Source: a virus (taxonomy: Duplodnaviria > Caudoviricetes). From it: DNA of 50,805 nt. A model generated the notes under the pieces. The model was not told where the DNA came from. It saw nothing but the letters and a program-made list of their open reading frames with translations, and made no database searches. Of the stretch, positions 1-34,607 are shown one piece after another. A program made the position numbers and the translations under genes. How positions within the stretch are numbered: position 1 is the stretch's first letter; the number at the start of each line of letters is the position of its first letter. Where the stretch lies: positions 1 to 50,805 of the IMG/VR virus record IMGVR_UViG_3300009528_000005. One strand, written 5' to 3'.

Positions 1-123
1 CCTGCGAGACTACGCTGTTCCCAGGTGGGGGATATGGGCTAAATTTCAAGTGTCCCGATTCTGTGCCTGACCAGCAGACGGCTGATATGGCTTTGAAGGT
101 TGAAGAGACTTTAGTGGGGGCAG
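1..123. repeat. Terminal direct repeat / circular assembly overlap (copy 1)
   Basis: Identical to 50683-50805; a reading frame runs across the junction. Confidence 0.95.
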
Positions 124-401: not shown

Positions 402-550
402 GGCGCATTTCCTATAGCCCAACGAACCCCCGCTAAAAAATGACTCAAACGATCTCTATACTGCTCCTGCGTAGATGTTTTTATTTGGAAGTTCTCCGTT
501 GACCATTCATGCAGACATGTTTGAAACCATTCGGCTGCCTTTTCAATCAT
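308..550 (-). CDS. Cassette D ORF, hypothetical 80 aa, reads into its attC
   Basis: SD AGGAGG inside core site GTTAGGAGGC just before ATG. Confidence 0.75.
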   Translation of the reverse strand: MIEKAAEWFQTCLHEWSTENFQIKTSTQEQYRDRLSHFLAGVRWAIGNAPPNPQCSGRVALFVKTKDLPKWKPKTIIGDT

Positions 551-557
551 AAAAGCC

Positions 558-620
558 TCCTAACAACAAGCTCACTGGTAGACTACCCTGTAGACTATCC
601 AGTGCAGTAATGGGTTAGGA
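558..620 (-). other. attC site of cassette C (63 nt)
   Basis: TCCTAAC-aacaa-GCT-CACTGG-TAG ... CTA-t-CCAGTG-c-AGT-aatgg-GTTAGGA. Confidence 0.9.
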
Positions 621-770
621 GGAATGAATTGCTATGACTGTACTGATCAAACCCCCAAAATAACCAATCAGCCAAAAAATCACTTTATTTTCTGTGTGGC
701 GGTATATGTCTAAATACACTCCTATACTCCCAGAAAGGATTATAATAAACAAAGCCATTAATATTCTCAT
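615..770 (-). CDS. Cassette C ORF, 51 aa two-TM membrane protein (MRILMALFIII...)
   Basis: Start moved to 770 after SD in GTTAGGAGGAATG; TAA stop lies inside the R'' box as in classical cassettes. Confidence 0.75.
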   Translation of the reverse strand: MRILMALFIIILSGSIGVYLDIYRHTENKVIFWLIGYFGGLISTVIAIHSS

Positions 771-778
771 TACATTCC

Positions 779-862
779 TCCTAACAACAAGCTGAGCGGC
801 GGGATTATTCTGCCTCAGATGGGCTATTCCTTTTTCCTGTCCGCTCCAGTGGTGGGTTAGTT
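779..862 (-). other. attC site of cassette B (84 nt)
   Basis: TCCTAAC-aacaa-GCT-GAGCGG-CGGGA ... TCCTG-t-CCGCTC-c-AGT-ggtgg-GTTAG. Confidence 0.88.
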
Positions 863-7810: not shown

Positions 7811-8944
7811 TTGAACTTATCCCCCAATTCTGATACAGCGCCTCCAAATAACCAGGGGGAGGTGGCATTGGTGACACGATGCAAGTATTACAGGCGCAAG
7901 GATGTGAGGTCTGAGCGTTACGTTGTCTATCTTGATTACAAGGGCAAGCGGTGGACACGGACGTACTTTGACGATCGTTTGTCCATCTGTGCAAAACCTA
8001 TGGCGCGGGAGCTTTGCTCTGAAATCAGCGCCGATTACAGGCGCAACCCGAAGACGTTTGACCCGCTTAAATGGTTCAGGGTCAGGCTGTCAGAGATGCG
8101 ATTCAGAAACTATGCTGATAGATGGCTTGATCGCAGGGACATCGAGGAGAGTTCCTATCAGGTATATAGGCATATTCTCAACGAAGCATTGGAAGTTCTT
8201 GGCGATTTGGACATCCGGGATATCCGAAAGTCCCACCTGAGGGATTACGTTGAGGGGTTGTCGAAAGACCTGTCCCCGAATACCGTCCGATACAAACTGT
8301 CCGTCCTGAACATCCTGTTTCGGGATGCCTACAATGACGAAGAAATAAACAGAACGCCTGGATTCCCCAAAATCAAGGCCGTGCCGGTTGTGACCCGCTG
8401 GTTAAACTACGAGGAACAGCAACAGGTACTTGAACACATCCCTGAACCAGATAAACCGATATTCAAATTTATGACGTATTATGGTTGCCGGGTAGGAGAA
8501 GCCGTGGCTTTGATGTGGGACTGTGTGGATTGGAGGCAGGGGGTTGTTACGATAAAGCGCACACTTTCGGCCAACAAGATCAGAGAAAGCCGCAAGACCG
8601 GGAATGTTCTGTGCCTACCGCTCACCGATGAAATGGAAGCCTTGTTGCGGCCACTTCGTAGTCTTCGCAAATTTGTGTTCACGAACAGGTATGGCCGGAG
8701 ATATTACAGACAAAACCTTCTGCGTACTTGCAATATAGCTTGTGAGAAAGCTGGGTTTGAACGCCTGTCCTTGCACGAACTATGCCGACATTCCAAGGGG
8801 GGCCAGTTAATTAACCAAGACGTGCCGCTCGAACAAATATCGGCATTATTGGGACACAAACATACTAATTCAACAAAGCGATATATCAAAATAAAAACGG
8901 AAACCCTGAAGCCGTTGGTAGAACATCCGGTTACGGACCGATAA
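7811..8944 (+). CDS. int: Tyrosine recombinase / integrase (start uncertain)
   Basis: Catalytic R (GCRVGE), K, HxxxRH, LGH, Y; SAM-like core-binding domain. Confidence 0.92.
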   Translation: MNLSPNSDTAPPNNQGEVALVTRCKYYRRKDVRSERYVVYLDYKGKRWTRTYFDDRLSICAKPMARELCSEISADYRRNPKTFDPLKWFRVRLSEMRFRNYADRWLDRRDIEESSYQVYRHILNEALEVLGDLDIRDIRKSHLRDYVEGLSKDLSPNTVRYKLSVLNILFRDAYNDEEINRTPGFPKIKAVPVVTRWLNYEEQQQVLEHIPEPDKPIFKFMTYYGCRVGEAVALMWDCVDWRQGVVTIKRTLSANKIRESRKTGNVLCLPLTDEMEALLRPLRSLRKFVFTNRYGRRYYRQNLLRTCNIACEKAGFERLSLHELCRHSKGGQLINQDVPLEQISALLGHKHTNSTKRYIKIKTETLKPLVEHPVTDR

Positions 8945-15967: not shown

Positions 15968-16153
15968 ATGGCAGAACTCCTCAAGTGCCAAAAACAGATG
16001 AATCATTACCCCAAAGTCGAAGCTGAAGACGAAAAACGCTGCCTTGCCTGTAAGGATGCTAAAACCTGCGTGTTTTGGAATATGCATCAAACCATAGATG
16101 TTCACCTAAGAGAAATAGCTAGCGAGGGCATACTACTAGGTCTATCATTATGA
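15968..16153 (+). CDS. Small Cys-containing protein
   Basis: ATGA coupling to terS. Confidence 0.6.
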   Translation: MAELLKCQKQMNHYPKVEAEDEKRCLACKDAKTCVFWNMHQTIDVHLREIASEGILLGLSL

Positions 16154-16647
16154 CAGACACTGAAACCAACCCAATAGGAAGACCACCCAAATACGAAACA
16201 CCGGAAGAAATACAACCCATCATAGACCAGTTCTTTAAAACCTGTGAAACAGGTAAGGTAGTTAATGTTATTAGCAAGAAAGCTGTAGTTACCATAACAA
16301 GGTCCATCCCACCTACCGTAGAAGGACTTGCCCTAGCTTTAGGCTTCAGTGGTAGACAATCCCTAGAGAGATATAAGAAAAAGCCTGAATTTGTAGACAC
16401 CTTTGCGTGTGCCTTTACCCGGATTGTGCAGACCGTTCTTGTTGGGGGTGCTATTGGAGAGTATGATTTCAGGCTTGTTCAAGCCATGGCGGCTAGTATC
16501 GAACCAGCATACCGACAGAAGCAGGAGATTGAGGTATCAGGCACTATGACCCATATTCCCAGTCTCGTCATGCTGGGCATGATAAACAACGAGGTCAAGC
16601 AGATAGGGCATGATGCTGACGTAGTGGATGGCGAGGTTGAGGAATAG
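16150..16647 (+). CDS. terS: Terminase small subunit (P22 gp3-like)
   Basis: GRPPKYETPEE...PPTVEGLALALGF...Y..K.EF. Confidence 0.85.
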   Translation: MTDTETNPIGRPPKYETPEEIQPIIDQFFKTCETGKVVNVISKKAVVTITRSIPPTVEGLALALGFSGRQSLERYKKKPEFVDTFACAFTRIVQTVLVGGAIGEYDFRLVQAMAASIEPAYRQKQEIEVSGTMTHIPSLVMLGMINNEVKQIGHDADVVDGEVEE

Positions 16648-16701
16648 TGGGACTGAGCAATGGGGCGTTAGACCCCCCTGTAACCTATTGATATTAGGCA
16701 A

Positions 16702-16729
16702 GGTTGACATATTAGTATTTATCAGACGC
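16702..16729 (-). other. dif-like XerC/XerD site
   Basis: GCGTCTGATAA-ATACTA-ATATGTCAACC (11-6-11), flanked by IHF-like boxes. Confidence 0.65.
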
Positions 16730-16758
16730 TTTGTAAGTAGCTGAAATCAGGTGAAGCA

Positions 16759-16971
16759 ATGGATCTCCATGAGTGGGTGACATGCTATCAGGACATCATG
16801 CTGAACGAGTTAATAGCCCCATCCCATCCCTGTGACACCTGTGTCTGCTATCTATGCTGTATTGACAAGCCGGACAGGATAGCAGCCTGTGACCTGATTA
16901 AGGAGTCCCACGGCCAGGGCGAGAAGGGGGGCCGGGGGAGGGGGTTTGGCGAAGGAGACGATATTAATTAG
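16759..16971 (+). CDS. Cys-rich hypothetical protein
   Basis: ORF track. Confidence 0.45.
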   Translation: MDLHEWVTCYQDIMLNELIAPSHPCDTCVCYLCCIDKPDRIAACDLIKESHGQGEKGGRGRGFGEGDDIN

Positions 16972-16991
16972 GGAGTCAGGGAGTGTCTGAC

Positions 16992-17273
16992 ATGAAAAAA
17001 GCAACCAAGCTTGCCATATTTTTAATTTTATTTTTTCTATGTTCCATTCCCACTATAGCCAGAGATTCTGTAATCGAGTATTATTGTCCTAAATGCAACA
17101 GCACGAACATTGAGCAGAAGTGTTTATACGAGCCTAGGGTAGAGAGGCGTTCGATAGACGAGTTAGCCAAGTCGACCGGGATTGTTATGGAAGATTTGGT
17201 ATGTCGTTGGCACAATTACGAGGCCAGGTGTTTGGATTGCGGTTATGTGGTTAAGTTTACGAGGCCGTATTAG
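16992..17273 (+). CDS. Signal-peptide + Zn-ribbon protein
   Basis: Hydrophobic N-terminus, CPKC...CLDC. Confidence 0.65.
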   Translation: MKKATKLAIFLILFFLCSIPTIARDSVIEYYCPKCNSTNIEQKCLYEPRVERRSIDELAKSTGIVMEDLVCRWHNYEARCLDCGYVVKFTRPY

Positions 17274-17282
17274 GTTTGGGGA

Positions 17283-17477
17283 ATGCCTGATATTTCTAAG
17301 AAGACAGTTATAGAAAACAAGCAATTCATCGAACTTGTACTGCAGTTGCTACCGAAGGAGCCTTGGGTCAGATTTGGTTTAGGGTCGGGGATAGAGGAAA
17401 CGGCGGAGGTCAGGCATTATCTTGATGAGCTTGCGGTTAAGATATGCAACGAAATAGATTTACCGTGGAGTGCCTGA
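17283..17477 (+). CDS. Hypothetical protein
   Basis: ORF track. Confidence 0.6.
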   Translation: MPDISKKTVIENKQFIELVLQLLPKEPWVRFGLGSGIEETAEVRHYLDELAVKICNEIDLPWSA

Positions 17478-17512
17478 CATTTTTACAATTTTTTCTATAA
17501 AGGAGCGGGGGG

Positions 17513-18010
17513 ATGCTTGTTAATGTAGCCCTGAATGTGCCTGTAGTGCATATAGGGCGCGATCTGATTATAGCCAAGGATGGGGCTATCTTGGAGTCCG
17601 GTGATCTGTGGTCCAGGGATGCGTATAATATGGTCTACAGCGTGGACAAGGGCCACTATCCGAGCAATCTGACGGACGGCAGGGAGGATACCAGGGCTTA
17701 TCCCGCTCATTGGTATTTCGATTATATCGTGGACTTAGGTAGGGTATACGAGATTCAGGAGATCAAGTTGGTCTGGGGGGAGTATGCTGACCCCAAATAT
17801 GTCACAAATTGGAATTTGTATAAGCAGGAGGCATTGGGTAATAATTGGAACAGGGCTTGGTCTGGTGGTGAACCCTGTTCTGAACATACCTTAGAGATGG
17901 ATATTACAGCTATGCGACTCCGGGTAAGCGCTGAGAGTGTGAGGGACGGCAAGGTGCTGAACTGGATCGGCATATACGGGCTTGAGGCTTGGGCCGAGGA
18001 GTTGGCATGA
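17513..18010 (+). CDS. Discoidin (F5/8 type C)-like domain protein
   Basis: NVALN, NLTDG, YIVDLGRVYEIQEIKLVW, LRV, LEAW. Confidence 0.7.
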   Translation: MLVNVALNVPVVHIGRDLIIAKDGAILESGDLWSRDAYNMVYSVDKGHYPSNLTDGREDTRAYPAHWYFDYIVDLGRVYEIQEIKLVWGEYADPKYVTNWNLYKQEALGNNWNRAWSGGEPCSEHTLEMDITAMRLRVSAESVRDGKVLNWIGIYGLEAWAEELA

Positions 18011-18231
18011 AAACGGTTTATGCGGGTTCATTAACCCATGATGAATTAATGGCTTTGCCGGAGACCGAGACCGTCAAGCGTGTGGGTGGGAAGGCGATTC
18101 GGTGTCAAAGGGGTGGTATAGGCGAGTTTTTGGGGCTGACATGGGACCGGGACGGTTGTACTTGGCAGATTTCTCGCAGTGACGGGCGGCTTTATAGGAC
18201 GAGATCATGGTTGCTCGATAATGTTTTTTAG
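18007..18231 (+). CDS. Hypothetical protein (MKTVYAGS...)
   Basis: GAGGAG SD, ATGA coupling. Confidence 0.6.
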   Translation: MKTVYAGSLTHDELMALPETETVKRVGGKAIRCQRGGIGEFLGLTWDRDGCTWQISRSDGRLYRTRSWLLDNVF

Positions 18232-18243
18232 TTTTTGAGGAAG

Positions 18244-18396
18244 ATGAAACTCAAGACCTCTGATCGCTTAAAGCGGTTGATAATATTCATCAAGGATTGT
18301 GTGAGGAACAAGTACACGGGTCAGCTTTGAATTGATTTCACTCAGGGTTGTCCGGCGGACATCTTCAGGCCACAGAGGGACGCGGTGAAGTTTTAA
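18244..18396 (+). pseudogene. Small beta-hairpin protein (YTGQL*IDFTQG) with in-frame TGA at 18328; nonsense mutation or Sec readthrough
   Basis: GAGGA SD; protein-like pattern continues through the TGA. Confidence 0.55.
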
Positions 18397-18558
18397 CTGA
18401 AGATATTAAACTAGAGAAATCTAAGTAGGATTATAAATTCTAACATAGGGTACTTATAAATCTGAGGGACTTGAGATTGCGGAGATTGATTATGGTTTGG
18501 ATGACCAAGCGGGAGGTTCAGGAGAAGGTGAGCTTGTAGAGGTTGTGGGCCAAAGGAG

Positions 18559-18693
18559 ATGAGGGCTTTGTTTGTAAAAGCAAAATCAGTGTTAAGTGAA
18601 AGAAAAGAAATTAGTTTTGCAAGGTTTCTAGCAGGTGCCTTAGTTGGATGGATTTTTGGGTTTTTTTTAGGTATGATATGGTTTATTGGCTAA
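18559..18693 (+). CDS. Small membrane protein, 44 aa
   Basis: AAGGAG SD; C-terminal TM; translated by hand. Confidence 0.5.
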   Translation: MRALFVKAKSVLSERKEISFARFLAGALVGWIFGFFLGMIWFIG

Positions 18694-18948
18694 CCCATAG
18701 GAGATAAGGCGGGGTTTTCATAATGATTTGTTTCGATTAATAAAGGAGAAAGGAAGTGGACGCAAAGATTGTATATAAATTTGAGGATGTTTTATGCCAG
18801 GTTTTGCTATCTGAAATTAGAAAGCAAATTGGATGGGAACATGGGATACCTGATAATGTTCTGCATTTTAGTTATCCAGAAGCAAGAATTGTGAGTATTG
18901 AAATAATACCATAAACAAACGCGGTGAAGTTTTAAAGGAGTAAAGGAG

Positions 18949-19362
18949 ATGGAATTAAGTAGGCGTTCTTTTTTAAAGAGTGCTGGTGTATTGGCAGTAG
19001 CTCCACTTGCGGTTAAGGTGGGATTGGTTGAGAAACTATCTGCTGATATTAAAGTTATAGAACCTATTAATTGCTGGAATGGGATAAAGGCAAGGTATCT
19101 GGGTAGAGTGCCAGTCGCACATCCGACCAAGTGGGACAAAAATGGTGAACCTATAAAATGGGATGTGTATGAAGCTGACAGATACCATCTTAGTAAGAAG
19201 ACAAGTACTAAGTCCTATCCGTTTACCATTTGTGAGGCATATGCCGAGATAGATGCTAATCTGGTTGATGCTGTACCAAAAGGTATGCGAGCAGATTGGA
19301 TAGTGGCAGAGCTTAGTGCTTATGCTGAGGGCATACAGGATCATATTAAGTACAATTTATAA
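18949..19362 (+). CDS. Twin-arginine signal protein fused to a major-capsid-like fragment
   Basis: SRRSFLK; CEAYAEIDANLVDAVP...AELSAYAEGI resembles MCP LETYSEIDVELINNAP...AEARSFLEGL. Confidence 0.75.
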   Translation: MELSRRSFLKSAGVLAVAPLAVKVGLVEKLSADIKVIEPINCWNGIKARYLGRVPVAHPTKWDKNGEPIKWDVYEADRYHLSKKTSTKSYPFTICEAYAEIDANLVDAVPKGMRADWIVAELSAYAEGIQDHIKYNL

Positions 19363-19366
19363 TACA

Positions 19367-19475
19367 TAGGGTACTTGATAACGTAGCCTACGCTACGGAT
19401 TATTAGGCCCGATTGAGAGCATGGGGGCTGTTCTACACCAGTTCCCACCATGGATATGCTCTTGGTCGGGCTTTT
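19367..19475 (+). ncRNA. Conserved TAGGGT leader/terminator RNA, copy 1
   Basis: Two hairpins plus U-tract; stems shared with 46615-46697. Confidence 0.75.
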
Positions 19476-19491
19476 GTCGTTATGGGGGAAG

Positions 19492-19611
19492 ATGCGAAAG
19501 GGGCGCACGATATATCATTGTCACGGGAAGAAGAAGGGTAAAAAACTTCGTACTTATAAAAGCGTGGCAGCGGCAAAGAGGGCGCATAAAGGAATGAGGC
19601 GAAAGAGGTAG
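19492..19611 (+). CDS. Highly basic 39 aa peptide (MRKGRTIYHCHG...)
   Basis: Fills the gap before terL; translated by hand. Confidence 0.55.
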   Translation: MRKGRTIYHCHGKKKGKKLRTYKSVAAAKRAHKGMRRKR

Positions 19612-19617
19612 GGCTGA

Positions 19618-21249
19618 ATGTACTTAGTGGAGCACGCTAACCGACAGGTAGCAGAAGAGCATTATAGGGAAGTCCTAATTAAGGCCAAGACCATCAGCGA
19701 TGCTGAGGCCAAGGCTGTGATGGCTGAATTGGGAAGAAGGGACTTGTACTACCTGATGACCCGCATTCTCTGCTACGAGGATTCTGGCGATCCCAAGAAA
19801 CCACGCCCTAATTTCTATATGCGCTTGCCTCCAAAATTCAAAGATTGGTTGTTTGAGCGGTGCAAGATGGTGCGGAATGCTCCAAATGGGTACTTGGATC
19901 TATGGGCTAGGGAGCATTTCAAAAGTTCCATAATCACATTCGCCCTGACCATTCAAGACATTATCAACGATCCCGAAATGACCTTCGGGATTTTCTCGTT
20001 TACCAGACCGACTGCCAAGGTGTTTCTGAAGCGGATTAAGTGGGAGCTGGAAGAGAATATTGTTTTAAAAGAGCTGTACCCCGATATTTTCTATGCCAAT
20101 CCGCAGAAGGATTCCCCAAAGTGGTCAGAGGACGAGGGATTGATCGTTAAGCGTAAAGGGAACCCAATGGAATGTACGGTTGAGGCGTGGGGTTTTTTCG
20201 AGGGGGTTCCCGCTGGCCGGCACTTTACCGTTAGGGTGTATGACGATCTCATTACAGAAAAATTTGTTACCAATCCCGATATGATTAGACGAGCGATAGA
20301 GCAATGGGATTTAAGCCTATTCTTGGGTCAAGCCATTCCCAATAAAATGTATGGCGAGGCTGATATAGAGCGGTACTCCGGCACCCGTTACCACGACAAC
20401 GATCCCTACCGTGAGATTATATCCCGTGACGTTACGAAACCGAGATTTTTTCCGGGCACCCACAACGGCAAGGCTGATGGCAAGCCCGTGATGTGGGACG
20501 AAGAGACCCTAGAGAGGAAGCGCAAGAAATATGGCCGATTCTCGTTCGCCTGTCAGATTTTGCAAGATCCACGGATTGAGGGAGTCATGGCTTTTGATCC
20601 AGGCGATTTAATGCACTACTCAAGTCAGGATTGGCGGGAGATGAATATTTACTTACTCTGCGATCCCGCAAACTCCCTAAAGAAGGAAAGCGATTATACT
20701 GTAATGCTAGTAATTGGATTAGGAGTTGACCGGAATTATTATCTGATTGATGGCATTAGGGAGAGAATCGGTTTAACCGATAGAGCACATAGGTTTATTG
20801 ATTTTTACATGAAGTATTTTCCAATAAGTGTTGGATATGAGAAATATGGCAAAGATAGTGATATTGACCACATAGAGTATATTCAAAATGAGCGGAATAG
20901 GCGATTTGTAATTACTCCTCTTGGTGGACGGTTGGGCCAAGACGATAGAATTGCTAAATTAATACCATTATTTGAATCCCACAGATTTTATATTCCTCTA
21001 CAGATTATGTTTATAGACAATGAAGACCGGCAACATAATCTTGTAACTGAGTTCATAGAGGAGGAATACAAACGATGGCCTGTTTGCATACATAGAGATA
21101 TTTTAGATTGTATGTCGAGAATAATAGACGATCCCTCATCTAAGCCTGAAAGACGGCTGGGGGCGGTGTTTCCTATACCGATAGAGAACATACTTGGGAG
21201 TAAAAGCCTTGAAATCGCAGAAACGGAATATGACTACTTCAACACGTAA
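19618..21249 (+). CDS. terL: Terminase large subunit
   Basis: AREHFKS Walker A variant, GRH/VYDD Walker B, GTRY, nuclease CDPA...SDYT...D..D. Confidence 0.93.
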   Translation: MYLVEHANRQVAEEHYREVLIKAKTISDAEAKAVMAELGRRDLYYLMTRILCYEDSGDPKKPRPNFYMRLPPKFKDWLFERCKMVRNAPNGYLDLWAREHFKSSIITFALTIQDIINDPEMTFGIFSFTRPTAKVFLKRIKWELEENIVLKELYPDIFYANPQKDSPKWSEDEGLIVKRKGNPMECTVEAWGFFEGVPAGRHFTVRVYDDLITEKFVTNPDMIRRAIEQWDLSLFLGQAIPNKMYGEADIERYSGTRYHDNDPYREIISRDVTKPRFFPGTHNGKADGKPVMWDEETLERKRKKYGRFSFACQILQDPRIEGVMAFDPGDLMHYSSQDWREMNIYLLCDPANSLKKESDYTVMLVIGLGVDRNYYLIDGIRERIGLTDRAHRFIDFYMKYFPISVGYEKYGKDSDIDHIEYIQNERNRRFVITPLGGRLGQDDRIAKLIPLFESHRFYIPLQIMFIDNEDRQHNLVTEFIEEEYKRWPVCIHRDILDCMSRIIDDPSSKPERRLGAVFPIPIENILGSKSLEIAETEYDYFNT

Positions 21250-21403
21250 GAAGAAAAAAAAGGAGCGAAGAAATAACCCTGGTCGCTACAAGCCGGAGTT
21301 CTCGTACTGGGTGAAGAAACCCCAGAGGAAGATTCTTGAGCAGTTTGAGGAAGACGAGCGCAATTCAGTCGCAGCGACAGGATACGATATGTTTAACACT
21401 TAA
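21230..21403 (+). CDS. Small protein ending in a copy of the TerL C-terminal motif
   Basis: VAATGYDMFNT vs TerL IAETEYDYFNT. Confidence 0.55.
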   Translation: MTTSTRKKKKKERRNNPGRYKPEFSYWVKKPQRKILEQFEEDERNSVAATGYDMFNT

Positions 21404-21437
21404 TCAAAGGACAATGAAAATACAGGAGGCCAGAGGA

Positions 21438-22244
21438 ATGAGAAACAAAGTTTTAATTTTTATGGTAACGGCTATCGCCCTGTTTTGCTTAACTGGTCAA
21501 GCGATGGCCGAGTTTGAACTGAGTCCGTGGAAGAACAAAAGCGGAACGCTTGGCAGTGAGGGCAGGGTGTGGCGATATGCCACGGCTGAGACTGCTCAAC
21601 TTGATTATGCTACCGTTGAGAAGGCGTTTAAGTCAACCACGGCTGCCGAGTTTACGGGGGCATTTACAGCAACGGATTTAATTAGCGCGGAAGACATTGA
21701 TGATCCTGTGCGGAGTTTTACTATCCCGCTGAGCGAATTTACTATTGTAGGTGCTAGTGGACCGTTGGCTGCTGCCGACAGGGGTACTTCTACTCCTGGG
21801 TTTACTGAACAAAATGGACTCCCTGCAATTTGTTATGGGTCGCCACAAATTGGTAGTACAAGTTCGCATCTAATCGCGGGGTTTGCTATTCCAGATGCAT
21901 ATTATTCCAGTTTGGGGTTCCGCGTTTGGGCTTCTCAGGACAATTGGCAAGAGGCTTCTCCCAATACCATTGATTGGTCTATCTGGGTAAATACCGATGC
22001 TGAAGTTTTTGATGCGGCTTCTACTCCGCAAACGGGAGTAGCATTGGCTTCGGGTTCTCAGGGTTCTCCGACATCGACCCCGGATATTATTGCTCTGGTG
22101 GTGGATGGTACGGGGTTGGGTCAACTAGGTGCGGCCAAGCAATGTTATTTAGAAATATGGGCTGAATATCCGGCTGGTCAAGCAGGAAACACGCGGCTTT
22201 ATATATATGGAGGAATAGAGATCTATTACACGGCAACGCAGTAA
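21438..22244 (+). CDS. Signal-peptide protein with tail-fibre-like N-terminal motif
   Basis: MRNK + hydrophobic + AMA cleavage; ELSPWKNKSGTLG paralogous to 45853. Confidence 0.75.
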   Translation: MRNKVLIFMVTAIALFCLTGQAMAEFELSPWKNKSGTLGSEGRVWRYATAETAQLDYATVEKAFKSTTAAEFTGAFTATDLISAEDIDDPVRSFTIPLSEFTIVGASGPLAAADRGTSTPGFTEQNGLPAICYGSPQIGSTSSHLIAGFAIPDAYYSSLGFRVWASQDNWQEASPNTIDWSIWVNTDAEVFDAASTPQTGVALASGSQGSPTSTPDIIALVVDGTGLGQLGAAKQCYLEIWAEYPAGQAGNTRLYIYGGIEIYYTATQ

Positions 22245-22290: not shown

Positions 22291-23403
22291 GTGTGGCGCA
22301 TACCCGTGCCGTTCGGCCAGGTAAGACTCAGCCTTCAAATACTTTTTGAGGCTGTAACAATTCTGTGTCTTGCGGGTTTCGTGTACCAGCGGGTGAATAA
22401 GTGGTGGGGACTGTTTCTTGGATTAACCCTAGTATCACTATTCATACCATTTTACACAAAAGAGTCGTTCTTATCATATTATGCGATTGTTATAGCGACT
22501 CTCTGGTATGCGCTAATTGTTTTAACTGTAGATAAAGATGGTTGTCAGCATCTTATGGATGCCATCTGTGTAATTGCTCTTTTTCATGTGTTTTTTCAGA
22601 TAATGCAGATTGTTGGCTGTGACCCGATGTTTGTAGACAAGGACGGCTTGCGAAACAAAGCCCCTCTTGGTCTTATGAGCAACTTGAACGAAACTGCGGC
22701 CTTGCTTGCGTTCTGCGCCCCGGCGTTTTTAAGACGGGGCTATCGCAAGGGCTTGATTGTAATTGTGGCGGGACTAGTCATGGCTAAGGTTACAATGGGG
22801 CTACTTGCCGCGCTTGCGGGAGCTATGTTTTATCTGTGCGTTGTCAGCCGTAAGGTTTGGTTGTTGGCGTATATTCCTGCTGGTGCCGTGGTTGCCGTTG
22901 CTTACTTTGTCTGGGTTGATATGCCGGGGGTTGAGCGCTGGAAGGTTTGGCAGACGGCATACGGGATGTTCAAGGAGCATTGGCTATTCGGGAGCGGGAT
23001 TGGCCACTGGAAGATGGTCGTGAATTTCCCGATACACGGCGTTCGTTGGAAAACGGCGCATTGCGAATATATCCAGGGCTTGTTTGAGATGGGCATATTC
23101 TTTCCCGTGATTATGTTCGGTTATTTTGCGGATGTAATAAGACGGGCATGGGGGCATACAAGAAACCTGATAATCCCTTTAACGGCTCTTGTGGTTATTG
23201 CAGCCAATTGCACAGCTAATTTTTGTATGCACATAGCTCCCACGGCTATGATAGCGGTCACATGGCTGGCAATTTTGCAGGTTGAATTGAATTTAAAGGA
23301 TAGGCAAGATGACGAAACAATTTTATATCGAGCAAGACCAAAGCGTAAAAGTAGCCGTCTTCGACAGAATCGTAAATCATCTAGTAATCGCTCAAGGCGA
23401 TAG
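22291..23403 (+). CDS. O-antigen ligase / O-oligosaccharyltransferase-like membrane protein (frame open from 22219)
   Basis: Many TMs; GLMSNLN, R...W...GSGIG, AHCEYIQGLFEMG. Confidence 0.82.
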   Translation: MWRIPVPFGQVRLSLQILFEAVTILCLAGFVYQRVNKWWGLFLGLTLVSLFIPFYTKESFLSYYAIVIATLWYALIVLTVDKDGCQHLMDAICVIALFHVFFQIMQIVGCDPMFVDKDGLRNKAPLGLMSNLNETAALLAFCAPAFLRRGYRKGLIVIVAGLVMAKVTMGLLAALAGAMFYLCVVSRKVWLLAYIPAGAVVAVAYFVWVDMPGVERWKVWQTAYGMFKEHWLFGSGIGHWKMVVNFPIHGVRWKTAHCEYIQGLFEMGIFFPVIMFGYFADVIRRAWGHTRNLIIPLTALVVIAANCTANFCMHIAPTAMIAVTWLAILQVELNLKDRQDDETILYRARPKRKSSRLRQNRKSSSNRSRR

Positions 23404-23709: not shown

Positions 23710-25383
23710 ATGGCTGAAGCCGATAAAAAAAGTAAGGGTCAAAAAATAATCGAGAGAAACAAGCATCTTGAAGATGACAGGCAAAGCTGGCTAACCCATT
23801 GGCAGAACATTAAAAGTTATGTTTTACCGAGGCACGGCAGGTTTATTTCAGTTGGCGCGCAAGCGAATCAGGGAATAGATAGGCATACAAAGATTTTTGA
23901 CTCAACCGCAATTAAGGCGATTAAGGTGCTTGCTGCTGGTATGCAGGGGGGTTTGACTTCTCCTGCAAGACCGTGGTTCAGGCTTGGCTTTGAAGATGTG
24001 GAGTTGATGACGTTTGGCCCGGTCAAGGATTGGGTAGATATGGTTGAGCGGGTTATATATGGGGTTTATGCTCGTAGCAATCTCTATTCTGCCATACACA
24101 GTGTTTACAGGGAGTTGGCGGGATTTGATACGGCCTGTCTGTTCATAGATGAAGACCCTATTAATTTTATCAGACTCAGGGTTTTCACTGCTGGAGAATA
24201 TTGTCTTGCTCTAGACAAGAGGGGCGAACTCGATACCGCTTATTTCCGATTTTGGATGCAGGTGCGGCAGGTTGTTCAAAAGTTTGGTTTAGATAGAGTG
24301 AGTGATGTTGTGAAGCGAGTTTATGAAAATAAACCCTATGAGTTTATTCAGATTGTTCATGCCATACAACCACGTAAAGACAGAGAACCGGGCAAGTTGG
24401 ATAATCTTGGTATGCCTTGGGAGTCTGTCTATGTTGAGTATGCTAATCCGAAAGAAACGCTTGAGATAAGTGGGTATAATGAACTTCCCGTTGCGGGACC
24501 GCGCTGGGATATCGTTGGTTCGGATGTTTACGGCACGGGGGTTGGCAGGGATGCCCTGGCACCCACGATGATGCTTCAGGAATTGCAGAAGTCCAGTATC
24601 AAGGCCATACATAAAGAGATTGAGCCGCCAATGCGGGTGCCAAGTAATTATAATCGAAAACTGAAGATGTTTCCGGCAGCGGTTAATAAAATTGACGTGA
24701 ACCAGAACGATGCCGTATCGAAGTTGTTTGACTTTGATTTCGATATAGCTTCGACAGAAGCGAAAATTATAAATGTTCAAAATGAAATAAAAGAGATTTT
24801 TTATAATGACCTGTTTCGGTTGATAGCCGATGCGGGAGCGGGTTCCGAGAAGATGACAGCTACAGAGGTTCTTGAAAAGAAGGAAGAGAAATTAATACTT
24901 CTCGGTCCCGTGATTGAGCGACAAATCCACGAATTGCTTGATCCCTTAATTGACCGAACATTTGCTATCGGTATGCGTAATCGCTGGTTTCCACCTCCGC
25001 CGCTTGAGATACAAGGCATGGACTTAAAGATTGAATATATCAGTCTGCTTGCTCAGGCGCAAAAACTTGCAGTTATAAACACGATTGATTCGATGGTGGG
25101 TTTTGTAGGTAATGTGACTGAATTATATCCAGATGCTCCTGATAAAATTGATATAGACAAGGCTATTGACGAAAGGGCGGAAGCGATTGGATCGCCCTCC
25201 AGGATAATTCGTCCTGACAATGTTGTTGAGGAGATGAGACGGGCGAGATCTAAGGTGCTTGAAGCGCAAGAAGCTATGGAGGGTGTTGCTGAAGCGGCTC
25301 AGGTAGCAAAGACATTATCAGAAGCCGATCTGGGGAAAGACAGCGCGCTTAAAAAAGTAACGGAAGTGGTAACGGGGGATTAG
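23710..25383 (+). CDS. Portal (head-tail connector, T7 gp8/BPP-1-like)
   Basis: GLTSPARPWFRL, RW...YGxG, MTATEV, LGPV.ER, EYIS.LAQAQK. Confidence 0.93.
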   Translation: MAEADKKSKGQKIIERNKHLEDDRQSWLTHWQNIKSYVLPRHGRFISVGAQANQGIDRHTKIFDSTAIKAIKVLAAGMQGGLTSPARPWFRLGFEDVELMTFGPVKDWVDMVERVIYGVYARSNLYSAIHSVYRELAGFDTACLFIDEDPINFIRLRVFTAGEYCLALDKRGELDTAYFRFWMQVRQVVQKFGLDRVSDVVKRVYENKPYEFIQIVHAIQPRKDREPGKLDNLGMPWESVYVEYANPKETLEISGYNELPVAGPRWDIVGSDVYGTGVGRDALAPTMMLQELQKSSIKAIHKEIEPPMRVPSNYNRKLKMFPAAVNKIDVNQNDAVSKLFDFDFDIASTEAKIINVQNEIKEIFYNDLFRLIADAGAGSEKMTATEVLEKKEEKLILLGPVIERQIHELLDPLIDRTFAIGMRNRWFPPPPLEIQGMDLKIEYISLLAQAQKLAVINTIDSMVGFVGNVTELYPDAPDKIDIDKAIDERAEAIGSPSRIIRPDNVVEEMRRARSKVLEAQEAMEGVAEAAQVAKTLSEADLGKDSALKKVTEVVTGD

Positions 25384-27466: not shown

Positions 27467-28198
27467 ATGAGTGAGACACAAACATTGTATACCAAAGATG
27501 ATGGTGGTGAATATGTGGAGCATGTGACTCCCACATTGTACGCCAAAGATGACACTGGTGCGTACTCGGAACACGTAGCTCCTACGTTTCGGGATTCTTT
27601 GTCTGAGGAATTAAGAGGGAATGAGATTTTATCAGGCATAGAAGATACCGAAGCATTGGCAAAAACCTTTGTAGACCTCAAATCATCGCAACCAGAGGTT
27701 CCTGCAACACCTGATGCGTACAAGTTTGACGTGCCTGAAAATTTCCCGATAGACGATACGGAAATGGGAGGCTTTAAGGCATTAACTCATAAACTGGGTA
27801 TGTCACAGGATAAGGCTTCGGAGCTTTTCAACTATTACGTTGAGTACCAGAATCGAGGCGTGAAGGCATTGCAGGACAAGAAAGACGCTGATCTTGAAAA
27901 GGCAGAAACAACCCTGAAGACCGATTGGGGAAGTGATTATGAAGCCAATGTTGGCCTTGTTGATAAAACGGTTGAAACATTTGGTGGCGAGGAGCTTATT
28001 AAAGAGTTTGAATCGTTAAAACTTACAAGAAATCCAATCATGATGAGAACTTTTCATAAGATCGGCAAAGCGATGAGTGAGGCTACACTCGCACCGGGCG
28101 GGCCTGGGCCACCGGCTGAACGTACTGAAGTTGATAGAACCGGGACTGGTGAGCCTGTATTGGATTTTAGTAAATCCATGCCCGACCAATACCGATAG
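27467..28198 (+). CDS. Capsid scaffolding protein
   Basis: Acidic; P..Y.F, G.SQ..A, L..DWG, IGKAMSE; directly before MCP. Confidence 0.85.
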   Translation: MSETQTLYTKDDGGEYVEHVTPTLYAKDDTGAYSEHVAPTFRDSLSEELRGNEILSGIEDTEALAKTFVDLKSSQPEVPATPDAYKFDVPENFPIDDTEMGGFKALTHKLGMSQDKASELFNYYVEYQNRGVKALQDKKDADLEKAETTLKTDWGSDYEANVGLVDKTVETFGGEELIKEFESLKLTRNPIMMRTFHKIGKAMSEATLAPGGPGPPAERTEVDRTGTGEPVLDFSKSMPDQYR

Positions 28199-28210: not shown

Positions 28211-29218
28211 ATGGCAACATTAACTTCGTCAACATCAGCATATAATTTGGCTGAAATGGCGAAACGAATGGATCCGAGTGGGGATACTGTCGTTATCGCT
28301 GAGGTGCTAACAGAGGTAAACGAGATGCTGTTAGACGCGCCTTGGTTTCCAAGTAACGACACTTTCGCACACAAGGTTGTAAGACGACTTTCGAGACCTA
28401 CTGGAACGTGGCGTAAGATCAATGAGGGCGTTGCCACGGAAGCCAGTCGAACAGTCGAGGCATGGGAAACCATTGGTATGCTGGAAACCTATTCCGAGAT
28501 TGATGTCGAGCTTATCAACAATGCGCCGAATCCGAAGGAAGCGCGGATGGCCGAGGCACGGTCTTTCCTCGAAGGCTTATCAGAGCATCTCGCCGATACG
28601 TTGCTGTACGGCAGTACCGAAGACTCGCCAGAGGAGTTCACGGGTTTTTCTCCGCGTATGGGCGTACTTGTCACATCGGACAACGTTTTAGACGGTGGTG
28701 GCAGCAGTTCTGATACGACATCCGTGTTCGTGGTTCAATGGGGCCAGGGACAGGTTTTTATGATTTACCCAAAGAACTCTGCGCCTAATGTTGGAATTAA
28801 ACATCAAGACCTGGGTGAACAAACTGTGTCACCTGCTGTTAGTTCTAATAAACACACTACTTCACAGTTTCAGGCATATCGAGATCACTTCCAGGTTAAA
28901 GCGGGTTTGGTTGTAAAAGATCCCCGCTGTATTGGCCGGATTGCGAACATTGAGGTATCTGGAGCGACCAACCTCTTTGATGAGGACGATCTGATCACGC
29001 TGCTTATTCGTATGAAGGGTGGTGGAAAGGGTGCCAGCATTTATGTGAACAAGGTTGTTATGACTCAAATGCAAATCGCCCTGAAGGACAAGAATAACGT
29101 CCACTACACAGCAGCGGGTGGTGAGGGTTTAGCCGGAGAACCCGTGGTTCGTTTCATGGGCCATCCGGTGCGACAAATGGACGCAATTCTTACATCCGAA
29201 ACTGCAATTTCTGCTTAG
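28211..29218 (+). CDS. Major capsid protein (Bbp17-like, HK97 fold)
   Basis: PTGTWRKINEGV, GMLETYSEID, LLYG...PEEFTG, RIANI, DAIL..ET. Confidence 0.92.
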   Translation: MATLTSSTSAYNLAEMAKRMDPSGDTVVIAEVLTEVNEMLLDAPWFPSNDTFAHKVVRRLSRPTGTWRKINEGVATEASRTVEAWETIGMLETYSEIDVELINNAPNPKEARMAEARSFLEGLSEHLADTLLYGSTEDSPEEFTGFSPRMGVLVTSDNVLDGGGSSSDTTSVFVVQWGQGQVFMIYPKNSAPNVGIKHQDLGEQTVSPAVSSNKHTTSQFQAYRDHFQVKAGLVVKDPRCIGRIANIEVSGATNLFDEDDLITLLIRMKGGGKGASIYVNKVVMTQMQIALKDKNNVHYTAAGGEGLAGEPVVRFMGHPVRQMDAILTSETAISA

Positions 29219-29231
29219 GAGGTGATTTTAG

Positions 29232-29699
29232 ATGATTATGGATGCTAACCTGGAATTTAGTGATTATCAGACATTAACTGGTATCACATCCACTACGTTT
29301 GTAACCAGTACTAACATCGTTGATCTTGGTGCTGCTGGTACAGACGCTTGGGGTAACACCCTGCGAAATCTGCTTGATGGCGGGAACATGAAGTTCAATG
29401 TTCTGGTCGGTGCTACTCTTACCACAGCAGACATTGCTTGTATGCTTTATACTTATAGTTCTGCAACCGGAATAATAAACAACGGTGAGGAGATTGTCAG
29501 GATTATATTAAGCTATACAAGTAGTGATGTGAATTATGCAATAGCTGGATTTAGAACCAGTGTTTCGGTCCCGCAGGGGATTAACATGCAGAGATATTTG
29601 GCTGTTAAATACATTGGTCTTAGTGGCAACCCCAGCGATACTATTGTTGATGCGTGGCTTGGTTTGGATATGGAGTCTAATCCCACTTTAGCCGCTTAA
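29232..29699 (+). CDS. Capsid cement/decoration protein (Bbp16-like)
   Basis: MIMD..LEFS..Q, STN.VDLG, RYL...Y. Confidence 0.85.
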   Translation: MIMDANLEFSDYQTLTGITSTTFVTSTNIVDLGAAGTDAWGNTLRNLLDGGNMKFNVLVGATLTTADIACMLYTYSSATGIINNGEEIVRIILSYTSSDVNYAIAGFRTSVSVPQGINMQRYLAVKYIGLSGNPSDTIVDAWLGLDMESNPTLAA

Positions 29700-31310: not shown

Positions 31311-32156
31311 ATGGCCGTAACAACTTCAGTTGATATTTGCAATTCTGCGCTTATCAAAATTGGTGAAGCTATGATATCGGCTTTAGGTGATGGTACTAAA
31401 GCAAGCGATCTCTGCAATGAAATCTATGCCAAGCGCAGGGATGAAGTCTTGCAGGTGTTCCCGTGGAACTTCGCCGTGAAGGAACTCAGGCTGATAGCCG
31501 AAACGCACTATAACAGGGCTGCTATTACGGGCATCACGGCGGCGGAACCCCCGGTTGTATCATCAACGGCTCATGGCTTTTTGGATGGCGATAAAATCAA
31601 GATAACTGGTGTCGCTGGCATGACCGAGGTAAACGGCACCGTATTTTGGCTTGAAGATAAAGCGGACGATAGCTATGAGCTTGTGGACGAGGAAGGTGAT
31701 GACATAGATGGGTCGAGTTTTACGGCTTATACATCTGGTGGGTACGCAAGAAAGATGCCAGCTATTAGGTATGAGTACGAATATAACTTGCCAAGCGATT
31801 GCTTGCGGATGCTTTACCTGACTGACGAGAATGGCACAGTACCAGACGGATCAATCTCATACGAGTTCAAAGTAGAAAAGGGCAAGCTTCTTTGCAATCT
31901 TGAAGAACGAAATGCCTTCATTAAATACACTCAGCAGATAACGGATGTTACAGAATATGATGATTTATTCGTGGAGGTTCTTGCTCTCCGCATGGCTTAT
32001 GAGTTTGCCAAACCGCTTGCTGGTTCCGATACCTTGGGAGCCGAAATATTCAAGCTGTACCAGACAAAACTATCAGAAGCAAAACAAGTTCATGCCAGTG
32101 AGAACACGGATGAGGCACCAGAATATAAAGACACTTGGATAGCGGCGAGGCGCTAA
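31311..32156 (+). CDS. Tail tubular protein A / adaptor with inserted FCCH-like beta domain
   Basis: ICNSAL..IG, PWNFA, Y.LPSDCLR; insert ITGITAA..HG..GD..ITGV.GMTE.NG..YTSGG. Confidence 0.85.
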   Translation: MAVTTSVDICNSALIKIGEAMISALGDGTKASDLCNEIYAKRRDEVLQVFPWNFAVKELRLIAETHYNRAAITGITAAEPPVVSSTAHGFLDGDKIKITGVAGMTEVNGTVFWLEDKADDSYELVDEEGDDIDGSSFTAYTSGGYARKMPAIRYEYEYNLPSDCLRMLYLTDENGTVPDGSISYEFKVEKGKLLCNLEERNAFIKYTQQITDVTEYDDLFVEVLALRMAYEFAKPLAGSDTLGAEIFKLYQTKLSEAKQVHASENTDEAPEYKDTWIAARR

Positions 32157-34607
32157 ATGATAATCCAGCGTAAAAAGCTTACGATACTGCTTCTCATTCT
32201 ACTCTTGCCTCTTTATTGTCTTGTGGGCGGGAGCATTGCTGGCAGGGTAAATGTAATGTTTACCAATTTTACTGCCGGTGAGTTTTCGTCCCGCTTAGAT
32301 GGACGGGTTGATTTAGCAAAGTATTATAACGCCTGCCAGACGCTTGAGAACATGGTTATCTGGCCGCATGGTGGAGTGTCCCGCAGGCCGGGAATGCACT
32401 ATGTGGCTGATGCCTCTTATTCTAATGCTAAGTGCCGTCTAATCCCCTTCCAGTTTTCTACCACGCAAGCCTACGTTCTTGAGTTCGGCGATCAATATAT
32501 GCGCGGGTATATGAATCAGGGCCAATTACAGATACCTGATGCATATACAAAATTATTGATTCATTGTGACGGCAATGACGGTAGCACAACTTTTACCGAT
32601 GAAGCAAGTCCTCATACAATAACAGCTAATGGTAATGCACAGGTTGATACAGCTTACAAGAAGTTTGGTACTGGAGCTTTATTGTCTGATGGCACTGGAG
32701 ATTATTTAAGTGTTCCTGACCATGCCGATTGGTTCATGGATACAGGAACATTTACAATTGATATGTGGATGCGATTTAATGTAGCCCCCAGTGCACCAAC
32801 TTCAGCTGATTTTGCCTATCAAGAGGTCGATGATAATAATTATGTAAAATTTTATTATCTTGATAATTATTTAAGACTTCTAATAAAAAGTGGTGGTGAT
32901 ACTAAAGTGGCCATGTATGCTACTTGGTATCCTGCTGCTGATACGTGGTATCATATCGCTCTTATAAGAGGTTGGGGCGGGAATGCTAATGATTGGGCTA
33001 TAACAATAGGTGGTAGTGTTCGTGATGTGGAGACTGATGCTGATTCTTGGCCTGATTTGGCTGCTTCTTTAATAATTGGTCACTTTGATGGTTGGACAGA
33101 TGAGCCTCGTGTTTCTAAGGGCATTGCTCGTTGGACAGCCAACTTTGCACCACCTTTAAGCGAATATCCAGGTGGAGATAATAGTGGAACTCCTTATCAA
33201 ATTGCAACTCCTTATGTTGAAGAACATTTACCGCAGCTTCAATTCGTGCAATCTGCCGATACCATGTGGATTGTGCATCCAGAGTATGAAGTTAGAAAGC
33301 TGACACGCACGGCGCATACAACTTGGACGCTGACGGCTTATGCTCCTACTTCAAACCCTTTCTCAAGCGATGCCGGAACCATGTGTCCGGGATCAGTGGC
33401 CTTTTTTGAGGAACGCCTCTGGTTTGCCAATACTGATGCATCGCCTCAGACAATCCTCTCAACCGTAAGCGGTGATTTTGAGGATATGTCGGCTGGAACC
33501 AGTGATGCTTCTGCCGTTATAATAACCATAGCTGCCGATCAAGTGAATGTTATCAGGTGGCTTGTGCCTACGGATTCCCTTGTTGTTGGCACGGTGGGCG
33601 GTGAGTGGATTGTTTCAAGTGCTGGACCGGATGATCCTATAACGCCAACTAATATTAAGGTTATCCGGCAAACAACGCACGGTTCGGCTAATATTCAGGC
33701 AATACAGGTAAGTCATTCGGTTCTGTTTGTCCAGAGAGCAAAGCGCAAGGTACGTGAGTTGGCGTATAATTTTGAAATTGATGGCTACACGGCTCCTGAC
33801 ATGACCTTGTTGGCAGAACACATCACTAAGGGTGGTATTGAGGCAATGGCCTATCAGCAGGAACCGGATGGCATTATCTGGTTTGTGCGCAGTGATGGCG
33901 TGTTGCTTGGCATGACATATATGAGAGCGCAGGACGTGATTGGCTGGCATCGGCACATCACAGAAGGATGCGTTGAGAGTGTTGCCGTTATCCCGGCGGA
34001 GGATGCTGACGAATTATGGCTTTCGGTCAAGCGAGAAGTTGATGGTGGAAGTGGGACTGATGTACCAAAGAGATACATTGAGTATATTGACAGCACAGGA
34101 TTTACTGATCTTGAGGACGCTTTTTTTGTAGATTCTGGGCTAACCTACGATGGCGCATCGGCAACCACCATTACAGGGCTTACCCACCTGGCAACTAAGA
34201 CCGTGGCTATCCTTGCGGATGGTGTTATTCAGGCCACACAGACAGTGAGCGCGGCTGGCAGGATAACCATATCAAGTGGTGCAAGTGTTGTGCAGGCCGG
34301 GTTGCCTTACACGTCCGTTTTAGAGACTATGCGTATTGCGGCAGGCGATATAATACAGGGCAAGATAAAACGAATCTCACGGGTTATTGTCAGGCTGTTT
34401 GAGAGTCTTAACCTTGAGATTGGACCAGATAGTTCAAACTTGGACGAGATTTCTGATTCCATGGCCGCAGTTTATACAGGCGATTTAGAGTTGGCGTTCC
34501 CGTCAGGGTATGAACGAGCGGCTAGGGTTTATGTCAGGCAGGAAGACCCGTTGCCGCTTAACGTATTGGCTATTATGGCACAGGTAGGAACGGCGGATGA
34601 GCGTTGA
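32157..34607 (+). CDS. Tail tubular protein B / nozzle with LamG insert and N-terminal signal-like extension
   Basis: NFTAGE.S.RL.GR.D, RLIPF.FS, QSAD, FFEERL, WHRH; LamG at roughly 32535-33180. Confidence 0.9.
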   Translation: MIIQRKKLTILLLILLLPLYCLVGGSIAGRVNVMFTNFTAGEFSSRLDGRVDLAKYYNACQTLENMVIWPHGGVSRRPGMHYVADASYSNAKCRLIPFQFSTTQAYVLEFGDQYMRGYMNQGQLQIPDAYTKLLIHCDGNDGSTTFTDEASPHTITANGNAQVDTAYKKFGTGALLSDGTGDYLSVPDHADWFMDTGTFTIDMWMRFNVAPSAPTSADFAYQEVDDNNYVKFYYLDNYLRLLIKSGGDTKVAMYATWYPAADTWYHIALIRGWGGNANDWAITIGGSVRDVETDADSWPDLAASLIIGHFDGWTDEPRVSKGIARWTANFAPPLSEYPGGDNSGTPYQIATPYVEEHLPQLQFVQSADTMWIVHPEYEVRKLTRTAHTTWTLTAYAPTSNPFSSDAGTMCPGSVAFFEERLWFANTDASPQTILSTVSGDFEDMSAGTSDASAVIITIAADQVNVIRWLVPTDSLVVGTVGGEWIVSSAGPDDPITPTNIKVIRQTTHGSANIQAIQVSHSVLFVQRAKRKVRELAYNFEIDGYTAPDMTLLAEHITKGGIEAMAYQQEPDGIIWFVRSDGVLLGMTYMRAQDVIGWHRHITEGCVESVAVIPAEDADELWLSVKREVDGGSGTDVPKRYIEYIDSTGFTDLEDAFFVDSGLTYDGASATTITGLTHLATKTVAILADGVIQATQTVSAAGRITISSGASVVQAGLPYTSVLETMRIAAGDIIQGKIKRISRVIVRLFESLNLEIGPDSSNLDEISDSMAAVYTGDLELAFPSGYERAARVYVRQEDPLPLNVLAIMAQVGTADER

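Follow-up and report, generated by a model that had tools for sequence, protein, structure and literature searches.

A putative Tat-signal protein built in part from the major capsid protein in temperate podophages

Gene 18949-19362 and its layout

The DNA analysed here (the window) is a full-length virus record of 50,805 bp, IMG/VR IMGVR_UViG_3300009528_000005, labelled as having direct terminal repeats. An exact direct terminal repeat of 123 bp was found at its ends (window 1-123 = 50683-50805). A DNA sequencing run that may be the source of the window is labelled subsurface metagenome; no RNA run was listed. The window phage is a temperate podophage. Gene 18949-19362, the subject of this study, sits amid several small open reading frames (ORFs) that divide the small terminase gene (terS) from the large terminase gene (terL). 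Its product is very probably a real twin-arginine (Tat) signal protein derived from a phage major capsid protein (MCP). The features of the gene, of the matching parts of the MCP gene and of other genes in the window are listed in Table 1.

The ATG at 18949 is the first start in its frame, which opens, counted from stop to stop, at 18928. The first of two AAAGGAG boxes read from the sequence, which make a strong Shine-Dalgarno site, lies 8 nt upstream of this ATG. The encoded pre-protein is composed of a short signal region, a linker and a domain of about 100 residues, in which a long β-hairpin bearing the family motifs GIK..YLGR and AD.YHL.K precedes the part related to the MCP.

Table 1. Coordinates of gene 18949-19362, its parts and other features of the window (aa, amino acids).
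Feature	Position	Strand	Remarks
Whole gene	18949..19362	+	137-aa pre-protein: Tat signal, linker, capsid-derived domain, then stop
Two tandem AAAGGAG boxes	18934-18940 and 18942-18948	+	Shine-Dalgarno-like; read from sequence
Putative Tat signal peptide	18949..19017	+	Residues 1-23; SRRSFLK residues 4-10, RR = 5-6
Linker and possible c-region	19018..19080	+	Residues 24-44; low model confidence
Long β-hairpin	19081..19203	+	Residues 45-85; strands 46-62 and 68-85
Strand, short helix, long helix	19213..19359	+	Residues 89-137; homologue of the MCP strand and kinked spine helix
Matched MCP gene segment	28475..28603	+	MCP residues 89-131; own-genome search placed the match at 28475-28594
MCP β-element hairpin	28769..28897	+	MCP residues 187-229; candidate source of the small-protein hairpin, suggestive
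Integrase	7811-8944		phrog_1, E = 1.4e-50
Small terminase (terS)	16150-16647		
Zinc-ribbon-like ORF	16983-17273		terS-terL interval
F5/8 type C (discoidin-like) domain ORF	17513-18010		E = 1.2e-5, under cut-off
Hydrophobic 44-aa ORF	18559-18693		terS-terL interval
Large terminase (terL)	19618-21249		
302-aa ORF	21336-22244	+	No family; terL-portal interval
370-aa ORF	22291-23403	+	Wzy_C-like (O-antigen ligase/polymerase type), membrane protein; E = 7.8e-5, 22.9 bits vs cut-off 31.7
Portal	23710-25383		
Scaffold-like	27467-28198		
Major capsid protein (MCP)	28211-29218	+	Pfam GP7, E = 6.9e-88
Tail tubular proteins	31311-32156 and 32157-34607		

Tat signal

Tat signals carry a consensus of the S/T-R-R-x-F-L-K type near the N-terminus. 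An earlier note on this DNA, made from the letters alone, had described a consensus twin-arginine motif at the N-terminus of the small protein, and the profile search bore this out: the Pfam model TAT_signal (PF10518) matched residues 2-20 with an E-value of 2.7e-5 and 24.3 bits, above its curated cut-off of 22.7. The motif is followed by an h-region of 12 uncharged residues (residues 11-22, mean Kyte-Doolittle value 2.05) and then by Lys23.

The same arrangement was retained throughout the family of small homologues described below. The RR and the F of RR-x-F were invariant across all seven members, each of which has 12-18 consecutive uncharged residues (mean Kyte-Doolittle values 1.57-2.05) with K or R directly after them. 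PF10518 matched six of the seven at E ≤ 10, with the window protein alone above the cut-off among the matches listed, and the TIGR01409 model matched three of the seven. A crude scan for Tat patterns at 1446 starts in the window and the loci of related sequences returned three matches, namely the window gene, its homologue in locus L004 and an unrelated ORF in locus L001; within the window, the Tat-type N-terminus was unique to gene 18949-19362.

Because the members have kept every one of the Tat features at an overall identity of only 33-38%, the pattern points to selection for export, and the protein is probably exported. Its signal shares with those described by PF10518 and TIGR01409 the RR-x-F-L-K type motif, the short, moderately hydrophobic h-region and the trailing basic residue. 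The passenger differs, being a phage capsid fragment instead of a cofactor enzyme. Language-model look-alikes of the whole protein in the ESM Atlas were small Tat-signal proteins, with scores below 0.9 that make them leads only; residues 36-137 gave no usable feature match there.

Homology of the C-terminal block to the major capsid protein

The MCP of the window phage belongs to the BPP-1/epsilon15 class, with 3j4u, 3j40 and 8cjz as solved relatives. It was matched by 102 phage records, every one at less than 60% identity.

In a single BLASTP comparison, residues 94-137 of the small protein aligned with residues 90-131 of this MCP (14/44 identical, 29.3 bits, E = 2e-5). In a search of all six reading frames of the window (402 stop-to-stop ORFs, each of 50 aa or more), the MCP was the top non-self match (E = 0.003, the next one 0.25). 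At the profile level, hhalign comparison of the family (7 rows) with 44 MCPs, picked from a listing of 120, gave a probability of 93.1% and an E-value of 3.1e-7 over 38 columns, joining family positions 90-127 to MCP positions 89-126. The score was 51.0, compared with 13.6 for the reversed family. Pairwise and profile alignments agree in this, and both sustain the relationship to the MCP that the earlier note had proposed.

Other family members gave a consistent picture. In BLAST searches against a database of 119 MCPs, four of the seven matched at E < 1e-3, their C-terminus aligning to MCP residues ~88-135 every time; the best E-values of the remaining three were 0.33 (P0003), 0.28 (P0006) and 0.098 (P0009). 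Member P0002 and the MCP P0070 share 20 of 34 residues (59%, pairwise E = 1e-9). Of the curated capsid models, NCBIfam MCP_gp7_epsi_15 (NF045672) matched one of the seven members at E = 0.0097 and Pfam GP7 (PF20911) one at E = 0.19, while the window protein had no GP7 match at E ≤ 10 and no full-length match to the GP7 family. Against the solved MCP 8cjz_Y, the family profile aligned at position 87-126 with E = 0.4, ranked under two matches to PRP9. The latter were the top sequence matches in the PDB (E = 0.038 and 0.055) and were judged spurious.

The AlphaFold2 (AF2) model of the small protein, made with seven sequences, has strands at residues 46-62, 68-85 and 93-102 and helices at 103-108 and 111-136. 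Its predicted local distance difference test (pLDDT) values were 83-95 over residues 41-137 and below 50 for residues 23-34. In the MCP, the corresponding elements are a strand at residues 80-98 and helices at 99-103 and 108-133, with boundaries taken from the AF2 model and from PMC3863775. The order of strand, short helix and long helix is identical in the two models. In the BPP-1 MCP, the same paper assigns the kinked spine helix and the E-loop to the N-element, residues 1-168, and on this assignment the match would comprise the end of the E-loop strand and the spine helix.

Judged from the alignments, the likeness of the C-terminal block to the MCP is beyond chance, and homology can be claimed confidently for a segment of about 40 residues (MCP 89-131), which takes in the last part of the E-loop strand and, in the P-domain, the spine helix. 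The GP7-type MCPs (Bbp17 of BPP-1 and gp7 of epsilon15; PF20911, NF045672) share this strand and kinked spine helix with the small protein. They are ~335 aa long, compared with 137 aa; the model of the window MCP (335 residues) has about 20 secondary-structure elements, that of the small protein three strands and a helix in a mature part of about 100 residues. Unlike them, the small protein has an export signal and lacks any counterpart of the A-domain, the E-loop or the N-arm; the complete Johnson fold (A-domain, E-loop, P-domain, N-arm) is absent. Since there is no full-length match and the fold is incomplete, the small protein falls outside the GP7 capsid family, from which it descends in part, and is itself no capsid protein.

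Origin of the middle part

The earlier note had joined the signal to sequence from the N-terminal third of the MCP and had taken the protein for a truncated MCP paralog. The first part of this proposal stands for MCP residues 89-131 and is not supported for residues 1-88, for which the family middle (residues 21-92) contains no counterpart detectable by hhalign (score 8.9, reversed 7.3). A simple truncated paralog does not fit either: only the strand and the spine helix are confidently homologous, and the middle, if anything, matches MCP residues 187-229.

In the whole MCP, the best hhalign match of the middle part was to residues 186-226 (score 19.1, E = 0.025, reversed 12.7), and 3 of 150 column shuffles reached this score. 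The alignment pairs GIK..YLG and YR.H...K with similar motifs on the MCP hairpin strands 197-206 and 220-235. For four of the seven members, the best BLAST high-scoring segment pair of the middle part also fell in the MCP hairpin region (E = 0.016-1.4). When the MCP blocks were placed in swapped order, hhalign aligned them collinearly with the family over 83 columns (96.5%, score 54.8), compared with 37 columns and a score of 49.9 for the natural order. Should the hairpin homology be true, the order of the two pieces would be the reverse of that in GP7-type MCPs, and the domain would be a rearranged mini P-domain in which three strands form a sheet on the spine helix; the evidence for this is weak and no more than suggestive.

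Structure comparison yielded no close relative. Foldseek found nothing at E ≤ 0.001 in the PDB or BFVD. The best VIA-align matches were LptE-like proteins (3bf2, 8h1r_B, 2jxp; Z = 5.9-5.1, root-mean-square deviation 3.9-4.6, 76-81 residues), lipoproteins with a two-layer α/β arrangement like that of the AF2 model. Homology to them was rejected, given an identity of 2-7%, no sequence relation and Z below 8, a range that VIA-align itself takes to mean a common arrangement. Other VIA-align matches, which include type III secretion system chaperones, were generic. No HK97-fold chain appeared in the VIA-align list; the HK97 fold is still compatible with this result, especially with swapped pieces. 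Prediction of a complex of the MCP with residues 35-137 scored 0.00, a value that carries no weight for or against any reading.

A small family of homologues

Twelve proteins reached E ≤ 0.001 in an exhaustive phmmer search of 1.84 billion representative sequences. Besides the window protein there were six of 120-141 aa that aligned with it from end to end (E = 9e-13 to 2e-7), and the remaining five were long repeat proteins. The six small homologues share 33-38% identity with the window protein, all their ORFs are intact, and each is a singleton cluster. Seven intact ORFs that retain length, signal and motifs at this level of identity argue for purifying selection.

The five repeat proteins (P0004, P0005, P0010, P0011, P0012) were not accepted into the family, as their scores sum many weak repeats with at most 14 bits per stretch. 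Three of them (P0004, P0005 and P0010; 2562-3039 aa) have 7-8 repeats with a core close to PTKWDKNG, the hairpin-turn motif at residues 58-65 of the window protein, and gave no Pfam family over threshold and one sub-threshold match. This likeness is probably a convergent β-turn motif. Sequences at loci L006 and L001 were likewise rejected as members, their similarity running through the signal region only.

Further searches did not enlarge the family. A word-index search with the single protein recovered only itself (1 protein among 6 candidates), and the same search with the family profile recovered four proteins, none of them new. Nothing was found by tblastn at E ≤ 1 in 50,697 phage records, and PHROGs had no family for gene 18949-19362 at E ≤ 1. 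Locus scans were empty for P0008 and P0003 in viral contigs and for P0003 in metagenome contigs.

Distribution and position in other phages

One homologue, P0007, could be placed in a complete genome. It lies at 6202-6585 of L004, inside G001, a phage genome of 41,908 bp that is complete and has terminal repeats. Here the gene comes after a single-stranded DNA-binding protein-like gene (PF00436, E = 8.5e-6) in the early/replication region, and an integrase gene (PF00589, E = 8.2e-24) is located 2.7 kb beyond it. The MCP of G001 is of the GP7 type (E = 5.2e-85). An integrase and a GP7 MCP are thus found in both the window phage and G001, while the neighbours of the gene are wholly different. 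A third member, P0003, appears to share one contig with the MCP P0015, a longest contig of 45,215 bases being reported for each. Wherever this can be checked, the phages that carry the family are temperate podophages whose MCP is of the BPP-1/epsilon15 type (Pfam GP7).

The gene was absent from five of five metagenome-assembled genome (MAG) assemblies that carry contigs of GP7-type phages. The sole matches in these assemblies had E-values of 0.167 and 0.317; the former falls at profile positions 87-124 within a frame of 325 aa and is probably the MCP itself. The small proteins showed no special likeness to the MCP of their own phage, which ranked 10, 3 and 81 of 120. Since the gene is rare, variable in position and found in temperate phages, its distribution speaks for an accessory gene and against a core role in assembly.

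Neighbouring genes in the window

The interval between terS and terL consists of about 3 kb of small ORFs (16648-19617). The 255-bp gap between the gene and terL (19363-19617) contains a strongly basic 53-aa ORF, 19450-19611, whose stop is 6 nt upstream of the terL start and which has no Pfam or PHROGs family. No Rfam family or tRNA was matched anywhere in the window.

Between terL and the portal gene, the two ORFs at 21336-22244 and 22291-23403 look like envelope-modifying accessory genes inserted into the packaging module. The latter, Wzy_C-like, is a candidate envelope-type accessory gene near gene 18949-19362. Directly 3' of the MCP gene, a 155-aa ORF (29232-29699, + strand) belongs to phrog_427 (E = 1.5e-7), a family of unknown function. 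We take its position to be that of the cement protein in BPP-1-type phages, in line with PMC3863775.

Proposed role and alternative explanations

We regard gene 18949-19362 as real and as an accessory ('moron'-type) gene that belongs to a tiny protein family. Its conserved Tat features, its local MCP homology and its sporadic, position-variable occurrence are directly observed, and they are compatible with the following scheme. A domain of about 100 residues, with three strands in a sheet that packs against a long helix, would have been made from the MCP P-domain. This small domain would fold in the cytoplasm, its RR signal would be recognised by the Tat machinery of the host, and the protein would be transferred across the cytoplasmic membrane to its periplasmic or outer face, there to be released or loosely held. 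It would act on the envelope, not in capsid assembly. Taken as a whole and leaving any part in exclusion aside, an exported, capsid-derived accessory protein acting at the envelope has about an even chance of being the correct description. The most likely role would be that of a lysogen-benefit or superinfection-exclusion factor, the capsid-derived surface of which binds a virion or envelope component; an exclusion or envelope role, taken as a claim of its own, is rather doubtful.

Several observations weigh against this scheme. In the signal region, TIGR01409 fell narrowly short of its cut-off on the window protein (15.8 vs 16.7 bits), and the cleavage site is unclear: the alignment has no signal-peptidase site of the A-x-A type at a conserved position, and possible small-x-small sites vary by member. 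Contigs of related phages were binned to widely different MAG lineages, and a host Tat system is an assumption. As for the domain, nothing links it to an envelope or virion partner so far, and fold searches yielded only generic two-layer α/β matches. The derivation of its hairpin from the MCP β-element stands at about even odds, as 14 of 150 shuffles of the middle block equalled the swapped-order result, in addition to the 3 of 150 noted above for the middle part. With regard to expression, a consensus scan counted 18 promoter-like sites, compared with 13.0 ± 2.7 in shuffles, and revealed no convincingly placed promoter or terminator signal upstream of the gene or flanking it. The GC content of the gene is 0.411 vs 0.439 in the window, the 29th percentile of 414-bp windows. 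Given this unremarkable composition and no promoter or terminator setting the gene apart, independent 'moron' expression is hypothetical. The base of comparison is also small, as two genomic contexts were read, those of the window phage and G001.

The capsid homology could instead serve a purpose in the cytoplasm. The homologous piece lies in the region of inter-capsomer and cement-protein contacts of BPP-1-type capsids, according to PMC3863775, and as a mimic of this interface the small protein might bind the MCP or its partners (neighbouring E-loops, cement protein, a host capsid sensor), either to modulate or poison assembly or to serve as an immunity decoy. In that case the RR/hydrophobic N-terminus would be a mere membrane tether or disposal route. 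This would suit the place of the window gene within the packaging/head region and the fact that the family was seen solely with phages having a GP7-type MCP, in two of two readable genomes and, judging from P0003 and P0015, in a third. However, Tat features kept in all seven members are hard to explain without export, the homologue in G001 has an early-region position, and the gene is missing from all five other assemblies with GP7 phages. Nor do the small proteins co-vary with the MCP of their own phage, as the ranks given above indicate. Because of the conserved export signal, the sporadic occurrence and variable position, and the lack of own-MCP likeness, the cytoplasmic ones among the conjectural functions in the earlier note (a procapsid tether, an immunity decoy, an assembly poison, jamming of the Tat translocon) fit poorly, and we consider this explanation unlikely.

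A bolder version of the envelope scheme supposes that phages cut out their own P-domain, swapped its pieces and added a Tat signal, and that the resulting folded mimic catches, in the periplasm, proteins that superinfecting relatives use for ejection or carry in their virions, or else some other partner selected for binding the capsid surface. We hold this to be quite unlikely as it stands.

It is improbable that the protein is a Tat-exported late protein with a lytic-cycle role at the envelope, either in antiholin-like lysis timing or as a 'hitch-hiker' carrier of a signal-less partner. The window gene lies inside the late region, on the same strand as terL and 255 bp upstream of it, and the Tat pathway is able to export folded complexes. 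Nevertheless, the gene has no conserved neighbour, the flanks in the window and in G001 being wholly different, no lysis genes were identified adjoining it, and the homologue in G001 belongs to the early/replication region.

A non-functional relic of a decaying duplicate capsid-gene fragment, or a chance resemblance of a helix to the MCP, might account for the shortness of the confident similarity (38-44 residues), the empty Foldseek result and the tiny family of seven sequences, but it is very improbable in view of the seven intact and diverged ORFs with length, signal and motifs retained, the profile score of 51.0 vs 13.6 for the reversed control, the 59% identity over 34 residues in one pair and the confident AF2 model of residues 41-137.

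Relation to known systems and significance

With an exported, capsid-derived accessory protein as the preferred description, the closest parallels in role would be found among the envelope-located exclusion and lysogenic-conversion proteins of phages, such as T5 Llp, P22 SieA and TP-J34 Ltp. These, too, are products of small, sporadic accessory genes of the temperate-phage type, and the small protein is likewise predicted to lie outside the cytoplasm; the analogy is one of role only. Llp, SieA and Ltp are membrane proteins or depend on Sec or lipoprotein signals, whereas the small protein has a Tat-type signal.

HK97-fold capsid proteins are known to be re-used as whole shells, the encapsulins. 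Our literature search, in which subscription journals were largely outside coverage, brought up neither a Tat-signal capsid fragment nor an HK97-fold piece that had become a free-standing exported small protein. Passages of a 2026 Tat review (PMC13673990) likewise mention no phage capsid fragment with a Tat signal. The proteins described here form a new tiny family. Among small exported phage accessory proteins they are an unusual variant, in that a capsid part was used to build them.

A possible parallel was noted in locus L001, an IMG/VR phage fragment. Its ORF 445-801 (+ strand) encodes 118 aa and begins with the same 9 residues as the window protein. Here the RR signal leads into a Phage Tail Collar domain (PF07484, E = 1.6e-7, above cut-off), and the ORF lies just upstream of head-module-like genes. 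The passenger is thus a tail-fibre domain rather than a capsid domain, and the alignment with the window protein is confined to the signal region. The two phages are unrelated, none of 12 window proteins matching the fragment by tblastn at 1e-3. This parallel hints that the export of virion-protein pieces may be more than a one-off.

The family is very small and known from metagenomes only, which limits its immediate testability. If export is true, the protein would be an example of exaptation of a capsid protein at the level of a domain and a rare phage-encoded Tat substrate. It would also show, by a natural example, that the Johnson fold contains a strand/spine-helix/hairpin unit able to fold alone. 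If it is an exclusion factor, it would represent a new class of mechanism. Should the P-domain mimic hold, then together with the L001 protein it would suggest a wider, unrecognised strategy in which exported fragments of virion proteins serve as envelope-level immunity factors.

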